Part shown: positions 10,243 through 63,965 of the stretch, piece after piece
Layout: every line of letters starts with the position of its first letter
Numbering within the stretch: the first letter of the stretch is position 1
Assembly: GCA_041666045.1 (NCBI GenBank)
Contig: JBAYHR010000003.1
Location: 2,208-66,207, forward strand
DNA: 64,000 nt
Reading direction: 5' to 3'
DNA from: Minisyncoccota bacterium
Lineage (GTDB): Bacteria > Patescibacteriota > Minisyncoccia > Phycocordibacterales > UBA9973
Translations under genes and position numbers: made by a program
Notes under the pieces: model-generated
What the model was told of the DNA's origin: nothing
Database searches by the model: none
The model's input: the letters and a program-made list of their open reading frames with translations, nothing else

Positions 10243-10713
10243 ATGAAGAATTTTAAGAAAGGTTTCACATTAATTGAATTGTTGGTGGTAGTTGCTATCA
10301 TCGGTATTCTAGCATCAGTTGTTTTAGCATCATTAAACTCAGCTCGTTCAAAAGGAGCTGATGCAGCAGTAAAAGCAAATATGGGAGGCATGAGGGCACA
10401 AGCTGAGCTTTATTATGACGATAATTCTAGTCGTTATAATGTTGATGGGACAACAGCTCTAGCGTCAACAGGTGCAACTGGGGCTGTTTGTGGCGTTACT
10501 ACTGGTATGTATAGTGATCCTAATATAACTCAAGCTATAGCACAAATAGCAACACAAATGGCAGGTACCTCTACAATGACTTGTACTACAGATGCTACTG
10601 GTCAATTATGGGCAGTATCTGTAACCGTACTTAAAGGTGCAGCAACTTCTTGGTGTGTAGACAATTCAGGTTGGTCAAAAGCTGGAACAGCAGCTGCTGG
10701 TGTTTGTGCTTAA
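10243..10713 (+). CDS. type IV major pilin (prepilin with class III signal peptide)
   Basis: MKNFKKG|FTLIELLVVVAIIGILASV prepilin peptidase site with Glu+5. Cys pairs in the C-terminal half. Own promoter and terminator. Confidence 0.85.
   Translation: MKNFKKGFTLIELLVVVAIIGILASVVLASLNSARSKGADAAVKANMGGMRAQAELYYDDNSSRYNVDGTTALASTGATGAVCGVTTGMYSDPNITQAIAQIATQMAGTSTMTCTTDATGQLWAVSVTVLKGAATSWCVDNSGWSKAGTAAAGVCA
10261..10323 (+). repeat. 63-nt segment shared (1 mismatch) between the two pilin genes, copy 1
   Basis: GGTTTCACATTAATTGAATTGTTGGTGGTAGTTGCTATCATCGGTATTCTAGCATCAGTTGTT. The second copy is at 10830-10892. Confidence 0.9.
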
Positions 10714-10735
10714 TAGTTAAAATTTAAATTTTAAA

Positions 10736-10766
10736 CAAAAACCACTTGAAAGTGGTTTTTGTTTTT
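10736..10766 (+). terminator. rho-independent terminator after pilin gene 1
   Basis: AAAAACCACTTGAAAGTGGTTTTTGTTTTT: GC stem followed by a T-run. Confidence 0.8.
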
Positions 10767-10808
10767 AGTATGTTATAATTAATTTAATTATTAAATAATA
10801 AGTTTATT

Positions 10809-11264
10809 ATGAAATTAAACAAAAATAGAGGTTTTACATTAATTGAATTGTTGGTGGTAGTTGCTATCATCGGTATTCTAGCATCAGTTGTTATGGCGTC
10901 ACTTAGTACCGCTAATAAAAAAAGTAAAGATGCTTCTGTTAAAGAAAGTATGAAGTCTATGATGTTGCAAGCAGAAATTCTTCGTGGGAGTGGTTCTACT
11001 TATCCAGTTGATATGTGTGTTTCATCTTTGGATTTTGAAAGACTTATAAAATCTATTAATAAACAGGTTCCAAGCGCTAATGCTGTGATTTGTAATTCTA
11101 GTACAACAGCTTGGGCAGCTGATGTTAAATTAAATGATGGAACTGTTTTTTGTGTAGACAGTGTTAGTTTTGTTGGTATTACACAACTTAGAAAAGGTTC
11201 AGCTATAGCTTGTAATCAGTCACAAGGGCAATATCCGCCAATACAACTACCTAACGAGATTTAA
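10809..11264 (+). CDS. type IV major pilin paralog
   Basis: MKLNKNRG|FTLIELLVVVAIIGILASV. The N-terminal coding segment is nucleotide-identical to the upstream pilin and the C-terminus is unrelated. Own promoter and terminator. Confidence 0.85.
   Translation: MKLNKNRGFTLIELLVVVAIIGILASVVMASLSTANKKSKDASVKESMKSMMLQAEILRGSGSTYPVDMCVSSLDFERLIKSINKQVPSANAVICNSSTTAWAADVKLNDGTVFCVDSVSFVGITQLRKGSAIACNQSQGQYPPIQLPNEI
10830..10892 (+). repeat. 63-nt segment shared between the two pilin genes, copy 2
   Basis: Identical to 10261-10323 except for one C/T difference. Confidence 0.9.
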
Positions 11265-12168: not shown

Positions 12169-12203
12169 ACATAACACATAACACATAACACATAACACGT
12201 AAC
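12169..12203 (+). repeat. heptanucleotide tandem repeat (ACATAAC)x5 abutting the minor-pilin start codon
   Basis: ACATAAC repeated four times exactly, plus ACGTAAC. The tract fills the whole pilD-to-minor-pilin intergenic space and ends at the ATG at 12204. Confidence 0.9.
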
Positions 12204-12911
12204 ATGAGATACAAAATAAAAAATTTAATAAATGCTATGCGCTGTGTGTTACGTGTTGCGCGCAATAAGGGTATGACTTATGTTGAGCTAATTGTTGTTT
12301 TGAGTATTTTTGCTATTATGTCTTCCATTGTTCTTTTTAATTATGGCAAGTTTCAAGCAAAAGTTGATATAAATAATTTAGCGAATGATATTGCTTTGAA
12401 AATAGTTCAAGCTCAAAAAGACGCTATGTCTGGAAAATTACCAACGCAAACTCCTTTTGTTTCTCCTTGGAAACCATCTTATGGAGTTTATTTTGATCCA
12501 ACAGTTCATTATAAATTTATTTATTTTACTGATTTATATAATTCTAAATATTATAATAGTTCTTCTTGTACTCCGCCTATTACCATAGAAAGTGGAGATT
12601 GTTTAGACGAAATAAACATAACAAAAGGGAATTATATATCTGAATTGAAAGTTTATCGCAATGATAATACGACAGAGATTTTAGCAACTAATTTATCTAT
12701 AACTTTTACAAGACCAAATTCTGGAGCATTTTTTGAATCTAATGGTTTACCGCTAGAAGATGTTTCTTATATTCAAATAACTATTACTTCTCCGCAATCT
12801 GTAAGCGCTAGAATTAAATTATATTCTTCAGGTAGAGTTGAAATATTACCAGGTCTAACACAGTCGTCCCTAAATGAAAGTGTTCCTATTGATAATACGC
12901 AAGTAAGTTAA
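12204..12911 (+). CDS. minor pilin / pseudopilin-like protein
   Basis: Prepilin-type leader ending KG|MTYVELIVVLSIFAIM with Glu+5. The start may be an internal Met. Confidence 0.7.
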   Translation: MRYKIKNLINAMRCVLRVARNKGMTYVELIVVLSIFAIMSSIVLFNYGKFQAKVDINNLANDIALKIVQAQKDAMSGKLPTQTPFVSPWKPSYGVYFDPTVHYKFIYFTDLYNSKYYNSSSCTPPITIESGDCLDEINITKGNYISELKVYRNDNTTEILATNLSITFTRPNSGAFFESNGLPLEDVSYIQITITSPQSVSARIKLYSSGRVEILPGLTQSSLNESVPIDNTQVS

Positions 12912-14520: not shown

Positions 14521-16671
<2,151 letters not shown>

Positions 16672-16717
16672 TAGCTTGCGTCCATCTATCTGAGAGCTTA
16701 TAATTAAAATCCACTTG

Positions 16718-16784
16718 TCCCGTTAGAAAATCATCGGGGTAGTGGTTTGTCGGTAAAGATTATAAATTAAATTTTCTAATGGGA
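16718..16784 (+). repeat. intergenic copy of the CCCGTTAGAAA inverted-repeat element, with the right arm ending in the ATG of the downstream gene
   Basis: Left arm TCCCGTTAGAAAATC. Right arm ATTTTCTAATGGGA, one mismatch. Separated by about 38 nt. Confidence 0.7.
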
Positions 16785-17311
16785 TGAAAGATAAATTAAA
16801 AATTTTAACAGTTTTTGTTGGGTGTTTTTTGTTTAGATTGATACCCTTACGAGCACCTAACGTTGAACCTATTATGGCTTCAATAATGCCTTTAGGGCGT
16901 AAATATGGAGCTTTAATGGCATTTCTATTTGGCTTTCTAAGTATGTTTTTATATGATGCTGTGACGCATTTTGGATCTTGGACTTGGGAAGGAGCTATTA
17001 CTTATGGAGTTATAGGAGCTGTCTCCACTTTCTATTTTAATAAGTTTAAAGCATCTGCTTTTAACTTTGCAGTATTTGCATTTTTTGCAACAATTTCTTT
17101 TGATTTAATAACAGGAGTTTTATTTGCTCCGATGTTTGGGCAAACTATTTTAAACGCTTTAATTTTACAAATTCCTTTTACAGCGCTTCATTTGGCAGGG
17201 AATATAGGTTTTTCTTTAACTTTGAGTCCTTTGATAAACAAATGGCTTGTGTCAGAAAAATTTTTTGCACTTAAAAAATCAGCAGTAATTTCTGATTTAG
17301 TTAAAATATAG
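16784..17311 (+). CDS. polytopic membrane protein (possible ECF-transporter S-component-like)
   Basis: About five TM helices and no soluble domain. Family assignment is tentative. Confidence 0.45.
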   Translation: MKDKLKILTVFVGCFLFRLIPLRAPNVEPIMASIMPLGRKYGALMAFLFGFLSMFLYDAVTHFGSWTWEGAITYGVIGAVSTFYFNKFKASAFNFAVFAFFATISFDLITGVLFAPMFGQTILNALILQIPFTALHLAGNIGFSLTLSPLINKWLVSEKFFALKKSAVISDLVKI

Positions 17312-18518: not shown

Positions 18519-18551
18519 TAATTTCTGATTTAGTTAAAATATAGCTCGCGG
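18519..18551 (+). repeat. 33-bp direct repeat, copy 2 (abuts the 3' end of tRNA-Ser)
   Basis: TAATTTCTGATTTAGTTAAAATATAGCTCGCGG, 1 mismatch to copy 1. The last 3 nt overlap the tRNA discriminator and acceptor end. Confidence 0.85.
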
Positions 18552-18635
18552 AGGGTGGGAGATTCGAACTCCCGATGCCCTTACAGGCATACAGACTTTC
18601 CAGGTCTGCGCACTAGACCGCTATGCGAACCCTCC
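18549..18635 (-). tRNA. tRNA-Ser (anticodon GGA)
   Basis: Hand-folded as an 87-nt class II tRNA. It has a 7-bp acceptor stem GGAGGGT/ACCCTCC, anticodon loop CUGGAAA, a long variable arm, T-loop GTTCGAATC, discriminator G, and no encoded CCA. Confidence 0.8.
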
Positions 18636-18695
18636 ATATCCTTTAATCTACATTATTTTATAGAAAAAGAAAATGTGGTAATATATAAGTTATAT

Positions 18696-19148
18696 ATGAA
18701 AAAAATAATAACAAGATGTAGAGAAAAAACAACAGCTTATTTAAGTCACAGACCAAAGTTTTATGCGTTAATGGTTGGCATAGGTATCGTTTTATTTTGG
18801 AGAGGAGTATGGCATAGTACTGATTTTGTCCATACTTATTTTAATGTTTATCAAAACAATTTAACTGTTAGCGGATCTTTTTCACCTTGGTGGGACGGAC
18901 CTCTTTCTTTAGTAGTTGGTATTATTATTTTATATTTTACTGGTGCTTTTATTTCTAGTTTTATAGGAAATGAATTAATTCTTTTGGGTCTTCGTGGAGA
19001 AAAGAAACTTAGTCAAAAGACGGAAGGTGAAGTTAGGACTGAAATAGATTCTATTTTAGATATTAAGAATAATCTTAGCGATATAAATGAAAAGATTAGA
19101 GAACTAGAAGAGAAGTTAAAAAACAAAGAAGTTAATAAAAAGAGTTAG
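18696..19148 (+). CDS. membrane protein with C-terminal coiled coil
   Basis: The ORF-track N-terminus (18555-18695) overlaps the tRNA and is discarded. The Met at 18696 is followed by two TM helices and a K/E coiled coil. Confidence 0.5.
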   Translation: MKKIITRCREKTTAYLSHRPKFYALMVGIGIVLFWRGVWHSTDFVHTYFNVYQNNLTVSGSFSPWWDGPLSLVVGIIILYFTGAFISSFIGNELILLGLRGEKKLSQKTEGEVRTEIDSILDIKNNLSDINEKIRELEEKLKNKEVNKKS

Positions 19149-40444: not shown

Positions 40445-40525
40445 ATAACTTGCCCCGTAGTGAATCGCTAGAGGCAGTTCTACTATGGGGTTTGCCTTTT
40501 TTATAAATTATGATAGACTGTTTTC

Positions 40526-41244: not shown

Positions 41245-41262
41245 TTTTTTAAAAAAAGAGCG

Positions 41263-41335
41263 AATACAAAAGTTTTCTGGCAAGCAAAAAGAATCCAGTG
41301 CTTGCAGGCAAAAATTTTTGTATTCGCTCTTTTTG
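41263..41335 (+). terminator. long nested hairpin downstream of the KH-protein gene (terminator or structured RNA)
   Basis: Outer stem AGAGCGAATACAAAA / TTTTGTATTCGCTCT encloses a second imperfect stem (CTGGCAAGC...GCTTGCAGG), followed by TTTTTG. Confidence 0.5.
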
Positions 41336-52935: not shown

Positions 52936-52948
52936 AATTAATTTATGA

Positions 52949-53069
52949 ATCCCGTTAGAAATCAAAAAGTTAAGTAATTTTTCACGGGATAAATAATTAT
53001 GGAGTATATAAAAGTCATTATTAATAAATTAACTACGGAGATCTAAAGATTTCCTATTTCTAACGGGAT
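52949..53069 (+). repeat. intergenic copy of the CCCGTTAGAAAT inverted-repeat element, with the right arm overlapping the rpoD start codon
   Basis: Perfect 14-bp arms ATCCCGTTAGAAAT / ATTTCTAACGGGAT, 93 nt apart. A partial extra right-arm copy (TCACGGGAT) lies inside. Confidence 0.75.
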
Positions 53070-54279
53070 GAAAAAAATAAAAGTAAAAAAAGTAAATAAG
53101 AAACCAAAAACAAAAGCTAAAAAAATTGTTAAAAAAGCTAAAAAAAGTATTAAGAAAGTAAAAAAAGTTTTATCAAAGAAAGATAATAATAAAAAATTAA
53201 CCGCAGCAGAAAAAAAAGTTAAAGAATTTACACATTTAGCAGATGAGCTTATAGAAAAGGGACGTAAAAGAGGATTTATCATCTATGATGAAATATTAAA
53301 AACTTTTCCTGATATTGAAAATAATATTTTATTTTTAGATGAACTTTATGAGAAATTTAGTGTTGTTGGTGTTGATGTTTTAGAAGGAGGTAATTTGCTT
53401 AATCTTGATAATGATATTAATGATAAGGATTTAAATAAATCAACTATTCATGATTCCATACAAATGTATCTTAAAGAAATCGGTCAATATCCGCTTATTC
53501 ATGCCAGTGACGAAAAAGATTTAGCAAAACGTATAGAAAATGGAGATGAAGAAGCAAAAAATTTACTTGCTCGCGCAAACTTACGTTTAGTTGTTTCAAT
53601 TGCAAAAAAATATGTTGGCAGAAGCGCCAATCTAAGTCTGCTTGATTTAATTCAAGAAGGGAATTTGGGTTTATTTAAGGCTGTTGAAAAGTTTGATTGG
53701 ACAAAAGGATATAAATTTTCCACTTATGCCACTTGGTGGATTCGTCAGTCTATAACTCGCGCATTAGCTGATCAATCTAGAACTATTCGTATTCCAGTGC
53801 ATATGGTTGAAACTATTTCAAAATATAAACAAGTGCACAGAAGACTTAGTCAGGATTTAGGCAGAGAGCCATTAGCAGAAGAAATTGCAACTGAAATGGG
53901 AATACCAGTTGAAAAAATTCATGTTATAGAAAATATAAGTCAGGAAACAATTTCACTTGAACAACCTATTGGAGATGATGACGATAAATCAACATTAGAG
54001 AATTTTATTCCAGATGATAAAATTTTGCGTCCAGATCAAGATTCTTCTCGCAGGATTCTTTCTGATCAAATTCGTGAAGTTTTAAATGAACTTAATCCAA
54101 AAGAAAGAAAAATTCTTGAAATGCGTTATGGCTTGATTGATGGTATACAGCATACATTAGAGAGAGTAGGGGAAGAATTTGGAGTTACTCGTGAGCGTAT
54201 TCGTCAGATTGAAGCAAAGGTGCACGAAAAACTTCGTCATCATGAAAAAATCGCTCGCTTAAAAAATTATTTTGATTAA
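53068..54279 (+). CDS. rpoD: RNA polymerase sigma factor RpoD-like (sigma-70 family, group 1/2) with K-rich N-terminus
   Basis: Region 2 ([24 protein letters not shown]). Region 3. Region 4 ([26 protein letters not shown]). Position after dnaG. Confidence 0.9.
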
Positions 54280-62269: not shown

Positions 62270-62342
62270 ATTATTATTAGTTAATTATTAATTTAATCCC
62301 AGTAGTAGAGCAAAGCTCACTACGGGACAAGTAAAAAAATAT

Positions 62343-63965
62343 ATGAAAATATTTAAGTTTAATAAGATTTTAATTATTGTTTTAGTTTTTGGGTTTACCC
62401 TTGGTTTAGTTGGATTAGTGGCAGTTAAAGCTGCGACTACAATAGATCTAGGCACAGCAGGTGATTTCTCAGTTTTAGCTGGTTCAGGTATTACTGATAC
62501 TGCTCCTTCTAATATTATTAGTGGAGATGTTGGATTAAGTCCAACAACTGGTGCAGCTATTGGGATACCCTCAACAGAGGTAAACGGAGTTATATATTCT
62601 GTTGATGGAGCTGGTACAGGTGATATAATGGATGCTAGTCGTTTAACTACAGCTAAGGGTGATTTAGTTACTGCTTATAATGCTGCTGCTACTGCGGGTT
62701 CAGCTACTACTATTACTGCCAGTTCAACTGACTCTTTTGGTTCTGGCACCATAACTAATGGCAACTCTTTGACACCAGGTGTATATAATTCTGGTTCTAC
62801 AATTGGTATTACGGGAACATTAGTACTTGATGGTGGTGGTGATGCAAACGCAGTTTTTATCTTTCAGGCTGGATCTTCACTTACTACAGCAACAGATAGT
62901 GTTGTTAGTCTTATAAATGGTACTCAGGCTTGTAATGTTTTTTGGCAAGTTGGTAGTGATGCAACACTTGGAACAAATTCTGAATTTTATGGAACCATAA
63001 TGGCTATCTCTTCAATTACAGATGATGGTGATTCAACAATTGAGGGAAGATTATTAGCTGATGCTAATGATAATACCACTGGTGCAGTTACATTAAACAA
63101 TACAACAATTACTGAATCTGTATGTGCTGTTGTTCCTGCTTCAGGAAGAACTCGTTTTATTGCGCAACTTCCACCTCCACTTATCAATGTTACAAAAATA
63201 CCAAATCCATTAGCTTTACCTTTAGGACCAGGATCTGTTACTTATAATTACATAGCAACAAATATAGGTGAAATTGCAATGAGTGATGTATGGGTTAGAG
63301 ATGATAAGTGTAGCTCTGTACAATTTATTTCTGGTGATGATAATAATAATTCTTTGCTTGATATAAATGAAGGATGGAAATATAGCTGTACTAAAACAGT
63401 TTCTGAAACTGAAACAAATACAGTTACTGCTCATGGTGCAACAACTAATGGTGAAGTATGGGATACTGCAAATGCAACTGTTGTTGTTGGTATACCAGTA
63501 ATTCCACCATTAATTCATTTAGTAAAAAAACCAAACATATCTTTACTTCCAGCTGGTGGTGGAGCCGTTACATATAACTATACAGTAACTAATCCTGGTA
63601 CAGTTCCATTAAACAATGTTAGTATCACTGATAATAAATGTACTGGTTTACCAGGTCGTGTTTTATCACATCCAGGAGATTTAAATAAAAATAATCTACT
63701 TGAAAGTAATGAAACATGGAGTTTCACTTGCCAAACTAATATTATACAAACAACAACAAATATCGGTACAGCTGAAGGTCATGCTAATGGTTTAACCGCG
63801 ATAGATTTCTCACCTGCTACTGTTGTTGTGGCACCAGTAGTTCCAAAACTTCCTAAAACAGGCTTTGGTTCTGAGAATAATATTTCTTGGAATATTATAA
63901 TACCAGCAGGTATTATGGGAATTTTAATTTCTTTTTATCTTGCTCGAAAAAAACAAACAAATTAA
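62343..63965 (+). CDS. surface protein: signal peptide, DUF3494 domain, two DUF11-type repeats, LPKTG sortase anchor
   Basis: LGTAGDFSVLAGSGITDTA...GDVGLSPT. Two ~95-aa repeats (VTYNY[IT]ATN[IP]G...). C-terminal LPKTG, a hydrophobic segment and an ARKKQTN tail. Confidence 0.7.
   Translation: MKIFKFNKILIIVLVFGFTLGLVGLVAVKAATTIDLGTAGDFSVLAGSGITDTAPSNIISGDVGLSPTTGAAIGIPSTEVNGVIYSVDGAGTGDIMDASRLTTAKGDLVTAYNAAATAGSATTITASSTDSFGSGTITNGNSLTPGVYNSGSTIGITGTLVLDGGGDANAVFIFQAGSSLTTATDSVVSLINGTQACNVFWQVGSDATLGTNSEFYGTIMAISSITDDGDSTIEGRLLADANDNTTGAVTLNNTTITESVCAVVPASGRTRFIAQLPPPLINVTKIPNPLALPLGPGSVTYNYIATNIGEIAMSDVWVRDDKCSSVQFISGDDNNNSLLDINEGWKYSCTKTVSETETNTVTAHGATTNGEVWDTANATVVVGIPVIPPLIHLVKKPNISLLPAGGGAVTYNYTVTNPGTVPLNNVSITDNKCTGLPGRVLSHPGDLNKNNLLESNETWSFTCQTNIIQTTTNIGTAEGHANGLTAIDFSPATVVVAPVVPKLPKTGFGSENNISWNIIIPAGIMGILISFYLARKKQTN

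Follow-up and report, generated by a model that had tools for sequence, protein, structure and literature searches.

We analyzed a stretch of 64,000 nucleotides (nt) from a Minisyncoccota bacterium (assembly GCA_041666045.1, contig JBAYHR010000003.1, positions 2,208 to 66,207; hereafter, the window) in which an inverted repeat lies directly in front of a gene for an ECF-transporter S-component-like protein. By its LigA and RpoD relatives, the host is a Patescibacteria bacterium of the Paceibacterota / Nomurabacteria type, with a low G+C content (31%). A sequence-only reading of this DNA had described a left arm, TCCCGTTAGAAAATC (16718-16732), and a right arm, ATTTTCTAATGGGA (16771-16784), separated by a gap of 38 nt; the arms, their coordinates, the spacing and the end of the right arm at 16784 were all confirmed, and so was a like junction, ATTTCTAACGGGATGAAAAAAAT, at the start of rpoD (53056-53078). 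Position 16784 is the A of the ATG of the open reading frame (ORF) 16784-17311, the product of which matches PF07155, an ECF S-component family. Because the N-terminus MKDK(L/F)KIL is conserved in relatives both with and without the repeat, the ATG at 16784 is, judged by this conservation, the genuine start of the ECF-S-like gene. The repeat, designated copy B, is one of three in the window and is laid out as follows.

16676-16704, plus strand: host promoter-like site of the ECF-S-like gene, outside the element, with TTGCGT at 16676-16681, a 17-nt spacer and TATAAT at 16699-16704
16713-16783, plus strand: copy B, a 71-nt hairpin element (16714-16784 is an equal alternative parse)
16713-16718, plus strand: left extension ACTTGT, A16713 being the predicted first transcribed base
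16719-16731, plus strand: left arm CCCGTTAGAAAAT, from sequence and alignment
16734-16739, plus strand: internal TCGGGG box, which could form an alternative 5' hairpin by local pairing with the left-arm CCCG
16755-16770, plus strand: A/U-rich conserved 3' interior AAAGATTATAAATTAA, a predicted single-stranded loop
16771-16783, plus strand: right arm ATTTTCTAATGGG, pairing with the left arm with one G.U pair
16784-17311, plus strand: ECF-transporter S-component-like gene, its ATG (16784-16786) directly 3' of the right arm

The 11-mer CCCGTTAGAAA, allowing at most one mismatch, was found seven times in the window compared with 0.70 +/- 0.89 times in shuffled sequences, and none of 100 shuffles reached seven. 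Six of the seven matches pair up as three hairpins (14857-14904, 16719-16783 and 52951-53067), the interiors of which are mutually unrelated and measure 26, 43 and 95 nt in copies A, B and C, respectively. The predicted folding energies were -34.1 kcal/mol (z = -6.0) for copy A in ligA, -21.3 kcal/mol (z = -2.9) for copy B before the ECF-S-like gene, and -27.8 kcal/mol (z = -3.0) for copy C before rpoD. The two other copies are the following.

14852-14909, plus strand: copy A, in frame within ligA just 5' of the KxDG adenylation motif, the element proper (C-CCCG..CGGG-G) at 14856-14905 being flanked by TTAA (14852-14855) and TGAA (14906-14909)
52946-53072, plus strand: copy C, between dnaG and rpoD, defined by sequence and empty sites and made up of TGAA (52946-52949), the element T-CCCG..CGGG-A (52950-53068) and a second TGAA (53069-53072); the terminal base of the element, at 53068, is the A of the rpoD ATG

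We compared filled and empty sites in relatives, whose loci are given L numbers. At the ECF-S-like gene, the empty site (L123, L124 and L126) has TTGC..(17 nt)..TATAAT-TAAAATCC-ATG and reads ..AATCC/ATGAAAG, where the stroke marks the insertion point, and the filled site (the window, L121, L122, L128 and L129) has 71 extra bases exactly between ..AATCC and ATG. The spacer between ligA and the ECF-S-like gene is accordingly 41 nt when empty and 112 nt when filled, and the empty site is recovered to the base when 16714-16784, comprising CTTG and the T..A element, is deleted. The ligA insert, which in the protein predicted from the DNA reads NPVRN..ISNGV before the KxDG motif, was present in the window and in one relative of 89% identity and was lacking in relatives at 87%, 84% and 79%; there, the empty site AAATTTAATTAT corresponds to the filled site AAATTTAA-C-CCCG..CGGG-G-TGAA-TTAT. 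The empty target is TTAA, and its two present-day copies differ (TTAA and TGAA). At rpoD, the empty sites (L254 and L255) show the dnaG stop, 6 nt and then ATGAAAAAA, and the filled site in the window is ATGAA-T-CCCG..CGGG-A-TGAAAAAA. Copy C was thus inserted into the A/TGAA of the start codon, with TGAA duplicated and ATGAAT left on the left side, and on the right side the terminal A of the element and the duplicated TG re-create ATG. Copies A and C both carry a target duplication, as their empty sites show. Presence and absence varied independently among genomes: copies A and B occur together in the window, A occurs without B in L123 and B without A in L128, and both are missing from L124 and L126. 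Because sister genomes hold clean empty sites, all three window copies are, on comparison of these alleles, insertions. Copy B has the same sequence in L121 and L122, which were assembled from independent read sets, and an assembly artefact is thereby ruled out. The copies at the ECF-S-like gene of the window and L128 are both 71 nt long, with interiors 62%, ORFs 90% and promoters 68% identical. Given that both have the same length and that filled genomes share the most similar ORFs, we do not claim two independent insertions at this site.

Each of these loci showed other structures beside the element. In relatives, the LigA loop before KxDG (about 14840-14910 in the window) contains palindrome-like inserts of other, unrelated sequence, for example PPLLNKERGGGEV, PSPLQGEGQGGEV and PPGKTLGVKGSQTPGVGEGM. 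A second palindromic stretch of ligA (15282-15360), encoding 27 residues, is an indel hotspot that is absent or different in many close LigA relatives, and LigA length among relatives ranges from 663 to 784 residues. Within copy C, just 5' of the rpoD start, a terminator-like hairpin, GGAGATCTAAAGATTTCC, is followed by a T-rich run (53037-53054). In one relative (L128, 7463-8816; L129, 4765-6118), the hairpin-led ECF-S-like gene is directly preceded by a diversity-generating retroelement consisting of bAvd and a reverse transcriptase.

To place the three copies in a wider family, one genome per species was scanned for both arms lying 16-46 nt apart, which gave at least 120 loci. Counts given here for listed loci refer to those whose matches were listed. 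The 80 listed loci with record titles cover at least eight phyla, including Patescibacteria, Planctomycetota (Pirellulales and Phycisphaerae), Omnitrophota, Desulfobacterota, Nitrospirota, Elusimicrobia, WOR-3 and Clostridia. Viral contigs gave just three matches, which argues against phage as the vehicle. The family ends are Y-CCCGTTAGAAAT and ATTTCTAACGGG-R; arms of 11-14 nt, conserved across all copies, form terminal inverted repeats around a variable cargo of about 3 to 140 nt, and minimal copies consist of the two arms alone (about 25-27 nt). Interiors form clade-specific families, some of them found in both orientations. Among the listed loci, the outermost pair, counted as part of the element, is C..G in 85 copies and T..A in 30. 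A position-by-position check found a direct repeat in the flanks in one register only, and an exact 4-nt target duplication flanked 67 of 125 elements at listed loci, compared with a shuffled mean of 8.3 and a maximum of 16. The duplicated target is usually T-N-N-A (more broadly, YNNR), the commonest being TTTA, TAAA, TGAA, TTGA, TCAA and TTCA. The 67 exact duplications in this census (L001-L120) were never palindromic, with no TTAA, TATA, TCGA or TGCA among them. When elements at listed loci lay within genes with long open frames on both sides, 17 of 26 were in frame, 16 of them as PVRN...ISNG.

A search of Rfam 15 returned only tRNA in the window at the gathering thresholds, and around the element the best E-values, with E allowed up to 10, were 2.7 and 3, which is the level of chance. 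As far as titles and abstracts go, the papers retrieved with the arm sequences concern only eukaryotes or viruses, and none was found on such elements in bacteria of the candidate phyla radiation. Copy B is a genuine member of a large and apparently undescribed family of mobile hairpins. Taken together, we consider it probable that the feature is a copy of a dispersed, non-coding, hairpin-forming mobile element, similar to miniature inverted-repeat transposable elements (MITEs) or repetitive extragenic palindromes (REPs), that was inserted at the start codon of the ECF-S-like gene.

The end ACTTGYCCCGT also occurs in a second family of hairpins. The arms of that family are CCCGTAGTGA../..TCACTACGGG, and copies are found in the window at 62296-62332 (plus strand) and 40448-40492 (minus strand), 10 nt and 3 nt upstream of starts at 62343 and 40444, respectively, with the ACTTGT end on the strand opposite the gene. 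This motif occurs three times in the window compared with 0.01 expected and was absent from all 256 fetched loci.

We next consider the junction with the start codon. The sequence-only reading had held that the meeting of arm and ATG was unlikely to be coincidence, and two surveys bear this out. A census of offsets drew on 130 elements from other genomes, in which 35 cases with a downstream ORF start could be scored; the first start codon stood at offset 0 in 12 of the 35, and every other offset occurred at most twice. A metagenome scan using CYTGT and the left arm only gave at least 120 loci, 96 of which were listed with a right arm. An ATG followed the right arm directly in 77 of the 96 and in two more after a 1-nt indel in the arm, and 70 of the listed start-abutting loci lead into ORFs that have 40 codons or more or that are cut off by the contig end. 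The downstream genes are unrelated core genes with intact N-termini, including those for bL19, PGK, Fpg, NrdR, uS14, YebC, bL28, SecE, DnaB and EF-P. The catalytic residue of Fpg is Pro2; because Fpg requires it, the abutting ATG in the Fpg loci must be the true start. At one further locus, L161, the ORFs called from their first start (10676-11098 and 12196-12534) begin MPRISNGM.. and MLRASNGM.., false N-terminal extensions that come from a right arm abutting the true ATG.

The window has 2482 RTNNAY sites, roughly nine of which, read off gene starts, are at start codons (about 0.4%). By a rough count, about 6-10% of the listed census elements represent insertion into the A/TGNA of a start codon. 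These counts suggest that start-codon insertions are in excess by about 20-fold, partly through survivorship. The main cause of the arm-ATG junction is where the element inserts or survives (A/TG) and not a built-in translation signal. The proposal that the element carries a portable translation start stands in part: at rpoD, the A of the element and the duplicated TG rebuild the ATG, but the ATG at copy B belongs to the host and is present in the empty sites. The companion proposal of a ribosome-loading signal was not borne out. The genes of the window have essentially no Shine-Dalgarno sequences, their upstream regions being A/T-rich, and the purine tracts in elements of other phyla lie, by eye, at least 12 nt from the ATG. 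We therefore rejected a built-in Shine-Dalgarno sequence. A translational relay through the element was rejected as well. The upstream frame from the left ATG ends at the TAA of the arm itself, ends at ATGA, or fuses in frame; it was open in 15 of 20 start-codon copies, which is not significant given a family baseline of 67% and a value of 56% with shuffled interiors.

Copy B belongs to a sublineage within Patescibacteria in which ACTTGT (in rare cases ACCTGT or ACGAGT) precedes the left arm regardless of the right flank, and in which there is no duplication. From the alignment of filled and empty sites, the geometry of copy B is that of a 4-nt duplication whose left copy always reads CTTG. 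The constant CTTG may be donor flank carried over on a 5' overhang, which the chemistry of piggyBac would permit, or it may be an element-borne partner of the AUG; both ideas are candidates drawn by analogy.

The host promoter-like site gives this sublineage a possible setting. In the window, TTGCGT-17-TATAAT is followed by 8 nt and then A16713, and TTGC and TATAAT are conserved with the same spacing in L123, L124, L126 and L128, where the spacer sequence varies. Where the element is absent, just 8 nt separate the end of the -10 box from the ATG, and the mRNA of the empty allele would thus be leaderless or nearly so. The base preceding CYTGT was A in 67 of 70 family members at listed loci, and in 22 of the 70 a -10-like hexamer lies exactly 6 nt upstream of this first A of the element, which is where such hexamers peak. 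Six nucleotides is the canonical distance from a -10 box to a transcription start. Among the 55 genes of the window, no clear -10 box peak was found 6-8 nt before ATGs, and a leaderless architecture throughout the window was therefore rejected.

The leaders of the sublineage were examined for conserved RNA structure by aligning 40 of them (61-66 nt, 75% mean identity) and deriving a consensus with RNAalifold. The consensus immediately 5' of the right arm is ..TTTATAATTTAAA. Fifteen pairs were conserved, and the predicted stem is 15-17 bp long. The U, G and U of ACTTGT are able to pair with the G, U and A of the AUG, and the pairs G5.U74 and U6-A73, which reach the U and A of the AUG, were found in 40 of 40 leaders. 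On the sense strand, one pair was G.U in 36 of 40 leaders and another was G-C or G.U at a ratio of 23:17; one stem pair showed a compensatory switch between AU and UA (22:17). In the unbiased genome census, the sublineage copies with the arm variant had it as G.U on the sense strand in 6 cases vs 0. When the 5' part was folded alone, 38 of 40 leaders had the CCCG of the left arm paired to the internal CGGG box, compared with 16.6 when the interiors were shuffled. The mean energy was -8.6 kcal/mol for this local 5' hairpin vs -19.0 kcal/mol for the full stem. Because the left arm pairs either with the internal CGGG box or with the right arm, the leader has two mutually exclusive folds. A covariance model built from the 40 leaders (R1) scored copy B at 79.8 bits (E = 2.6e-14), a match by construction given that copy B is among the 40 sequences, and its search of the window found no copy beyond those known.

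The cost of opening the region from -12 to +12 was 8.0 kcal/mol at copy B and 8.1 kcal/mol at copy C, compared with a genome mean of 6.2 +/- 3.1 over 55 genes. As this is just 0.6 standard deviations over the mean, strong occlusion of the start codon was rejected. The earlier suggestion that the long-range stem sequesters the initiation region thus holds only in a weakened form: the predicted stem holds the A and U of the AUG in every leader aligned, but the occlusion is modest.

A role as a two-state leader that caps the 5' end is plausible, on the folding models, for the ACTTGT sublineage. In such a scheme, the mRNA of the filled allele would start at A16713, and its whole 71-nt leader would be the element. 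One fold would be the local 5' hairpin of the left arm and the internal CGGG box, leaving the AUG free; the other, more stable, would be the long-range stem of 15-17 bp, in which the 5' end is paired and the A and U of the AUG are concealed. The outcome would be protection of the 5' end together with a mild, possibly kinetic, brake on initiation, and, with no Shine-Dalgarno sequences in the genome, the A/U-rich loop would be where ribosomes load. The exact abutment would then reflect insertion at A/TG and the loss of every insertion that breaks a compact promoter or gene.

Known systems offer several comparisons. Bacterial MITEs, such as the Correia elements of Neisseria, are likewise short and non-coding, with terminal inverted repeats, target duplication, dispersed copies and insertion polymorphism, and Correia elements are often transcribed together with adjacent genes, forming 5' hairpins able to alter expression. 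The elements described here differ in being far smaller, in having unrelated cargo between copies, in keeping the same 11- to 13-nt ends in at least eight phyla, and in a duplication of 4 nt rather than TA; one sublineage lacks the duplication and sits exactly at start codons, and no parent transposon was found. Rickettsia palindromic elements are selfish palindromes inserted in frame in protein genes and translated, and the in-frame insertions found here, ligA included, parallel them. However, the present elements, which we take to be unrelated in sequence to those of Rickettsia, are shorter, have hosts in many phyla and also target start codons. Leaders that occlude the AUG (RNA thermometers, hok mRNA) and 5' stabilizer hairpins (ompA, aprE) resemble the predicted 5'-terminal stem, which pairs the first bases and part of the AUG, and the upstream alternative hairpin, predicted to be mutually exclusive with the long stem, recalls kinetic folding traps such as that of hok mRNA. 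In contrast to such leaders, the predicted ones described here are mobile, serve many genes and have no Shine-Dalgarno sequence to occlude.

REPs and REPINs are also small palindromes that could plausibly act as RNA hairpins. REPs are defined as palindromes of 20-40 nt that carry a GTAG or CGTC tag, left unpaired, at one end, and copies are reported within genes too, many of them for replication or repair (Di Nocera et al. 2013, PMC3733652); such intragenic copies parallel copy A in ligA. The elements here have no unpaired GTAG or CGTC tag, their ends reading Y-CCCGTTAG with GTTAG inside the stem, and they have real target duplications and do not lie mainly downstream of genes. An integron attC site was rejected: the order here is GTTAGAA...TTCTAAC on both strands and not RYYYAAC...GTTRRRY, there is no array, and copies occur in ligA and between dnaG and rpoD. 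Likewise, a CRISPR repeat, an operator palindrome and a ligA terminator do not agree with the lack of arrays, the arm spacing of 16-95 nt, the copies inside ORFs and the lack of a U-tract. The ends of the piggyBac transposon are CCC/GGG and its duplications are TTAA, and it is distantly related to the IS1380 transposases of prokaryotes (PMC10140906). The CCC...GGG ends, the 4-nt T-N-N-A duplication, the clean empty sites and the TTAA of the empty ligA site all recall piggyBac/IS1380, but in the present elements CCC..GGG is set one base inside the ends, targets other than TTAA occur, and exact duplications are never palindromic. No DDE transposase adjoining these ends was found in the fetched loci, and the resemblance is, as an analogy, a lead only. 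As for an autonomous transposon, none was found in the fetched loci, where the arms of pairs 0.4-4 kb apart are separated by housekeeping genes (prfA, ackA and hisS among them).

Could the same observations arise without any role for the RNA? If the element were purely selfish DNA that inserts at T-N-N-A-like or A/TG sites, the abutment would be survivorship and the hairpin a terminal inverted repeat, the start codon being among the few positions in a compact genome where an insertion of 50-120 bp spares both promoter and gene. The polymorphism between close relatives, the target duplications, the modest occlusion energy, the general family without a sense-strand wobble bias and the upstream frame, no more open than the family baseline, all agree with such DNA. 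However, it does not readily explain why the right arm and ACTTGT are invariant while the interiors have diverged at orthologous bL28, uS14, bL19, SecE, Fpg and EF-P sites, why the local alternative hairpin is in excess over shuffled interiors, or why the arm variant always gives G.U on the sense strand in the sublineage, and survivorship alone leaves the constant CTTG left flank unexplained. We judge it unlikely that selfish DNA is the full explanation. The opposite extreme, a host regulatory RNA leader (a thermosensor, or a protein-binding or riboswitch-like leader) that spread between genes with mobility as a secondary matter, would account for the conserved two-state fold, for the exact AUG abutment in about 80 listed loci and for the retention of the element before ribosomal-protein and other core genes. 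It is very unlikely all the same: the downstream genes have no common pathway, the loop is poorly conserved save for two short boxes, Rfam gave no match even at E up to 10, and the same arms occur in frame within ORFs and with target duplications in at least eight phyla.

Still less likely is an outward promoter within the element, in which an A/T-rich box, TTATAAAT/TTATTAAT, just 5' of the right arm would start transcription within that arm and leave no hairpin in the mRNA. Correia repeats carry promoters, which lends the idea some general backing, and an A/T-rich, -10-like box is conserved some 17 nt upstream of the ATG. This box, however, often lacks the critical final T, as in the window copy (TATAAA), there is no -35 hexamer at a fixed distance, and a promoter scan of 16500-16900 found no promoter-like site. 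The -10 box of the host has been kept, with its peak at exactly 6 nt from the first base of the element. That the junction is due to chance, or to an annotation or assembly artefact, could be entertained from three copies in one window, but the excess of arms over shuffles, the offset census, the listed metagenome loci and the identical independent assemblies make this next to impossible.

Several points weigh against a mobile hairpin that acts as a leader at copy B. Copy B has no target duplication, with CTTG on its left and TGAA on its right, and the constant CTTG is accounted for neither by decay of a duplication nor by convergence. A transposase with these ends was looked for between arm pairs 400-4000 nt apart in 1.64 Mb of fetched loci, and none was found; the copies of the window and L128 may be one old insertion followed by precise losses instead of two events. 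The start site at 16713 is predicted from promoter geometry, the -35 hexamer of the host site falls below the promoter scan threshold (3/6 matches), and some copies of the sublineage are operon-internal, for example before the uS14 gene, so that a leaderless context is not universal. Occlusion of the copy B start is moderate (rank 12th of 55 genes). In the phylum-wide census, G.U content showed no sense-strand bias (13 vs 11), and we therefore rejected RNA-level selection across the general family. Because of this lack of strand bias, such selection is supported only for the ACTTGT sublineage, for which the evidence is partly confounded by shared descent and by the way the loci were retrieved.

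A bolder version of the leader scheme can be put forward tentatively; it is possible, if doubtful. A lineage of mobile hairpins would home to the A/TG of start codons, install a two-state 5' leader, and so put leaderless or translationally coupled genes of Patescibacteria without Shine-Dalgarno sequences under a shared, portable post-transcriptional control. ACUUGU would be the partner or guide of the AUG, and the parent would be an ancient cross-phylum transposon with piggyBac-like ends.

Three further features of the window were noted. The tRNA-Ser(GGA) gene (18548-18635, minus strand) overlaps the start of ORF 18555-19148, and that start is therefore probably wrong. A short tandem run, acacataacacataacacataacacgtaac (12174-12203), lies directly upstream of the ATG at 12204. 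At 41253-41334, an inverted repeat of 24 nt (AAAAAGAGCGAATACAAAAGTTTT), 96% complementary with a 34-nt gap, lies at the overlap of two predicted ORFs.

If confirmed, these results would mean that a family of miniature mobile hairpins is spread very widely among poorly known phyla, with Patescibacteria, Planctomycetota, Omnitrophota and Desulfobacterota among them. Its in-frame insertions would reshape proteins such as DNA ligase, and variation in the length of core proteins in these phyla may largely be due to element insertions. For annotation the family is a hazard, in that start calls and apparent N-terminal extensions (..ISNGM..) near elements can be wrong. The sublineage that abuts start codons would make translation initiation and the protection of mRNA 5' ends testable in bacteria without Shine-Dalgarno sequences.

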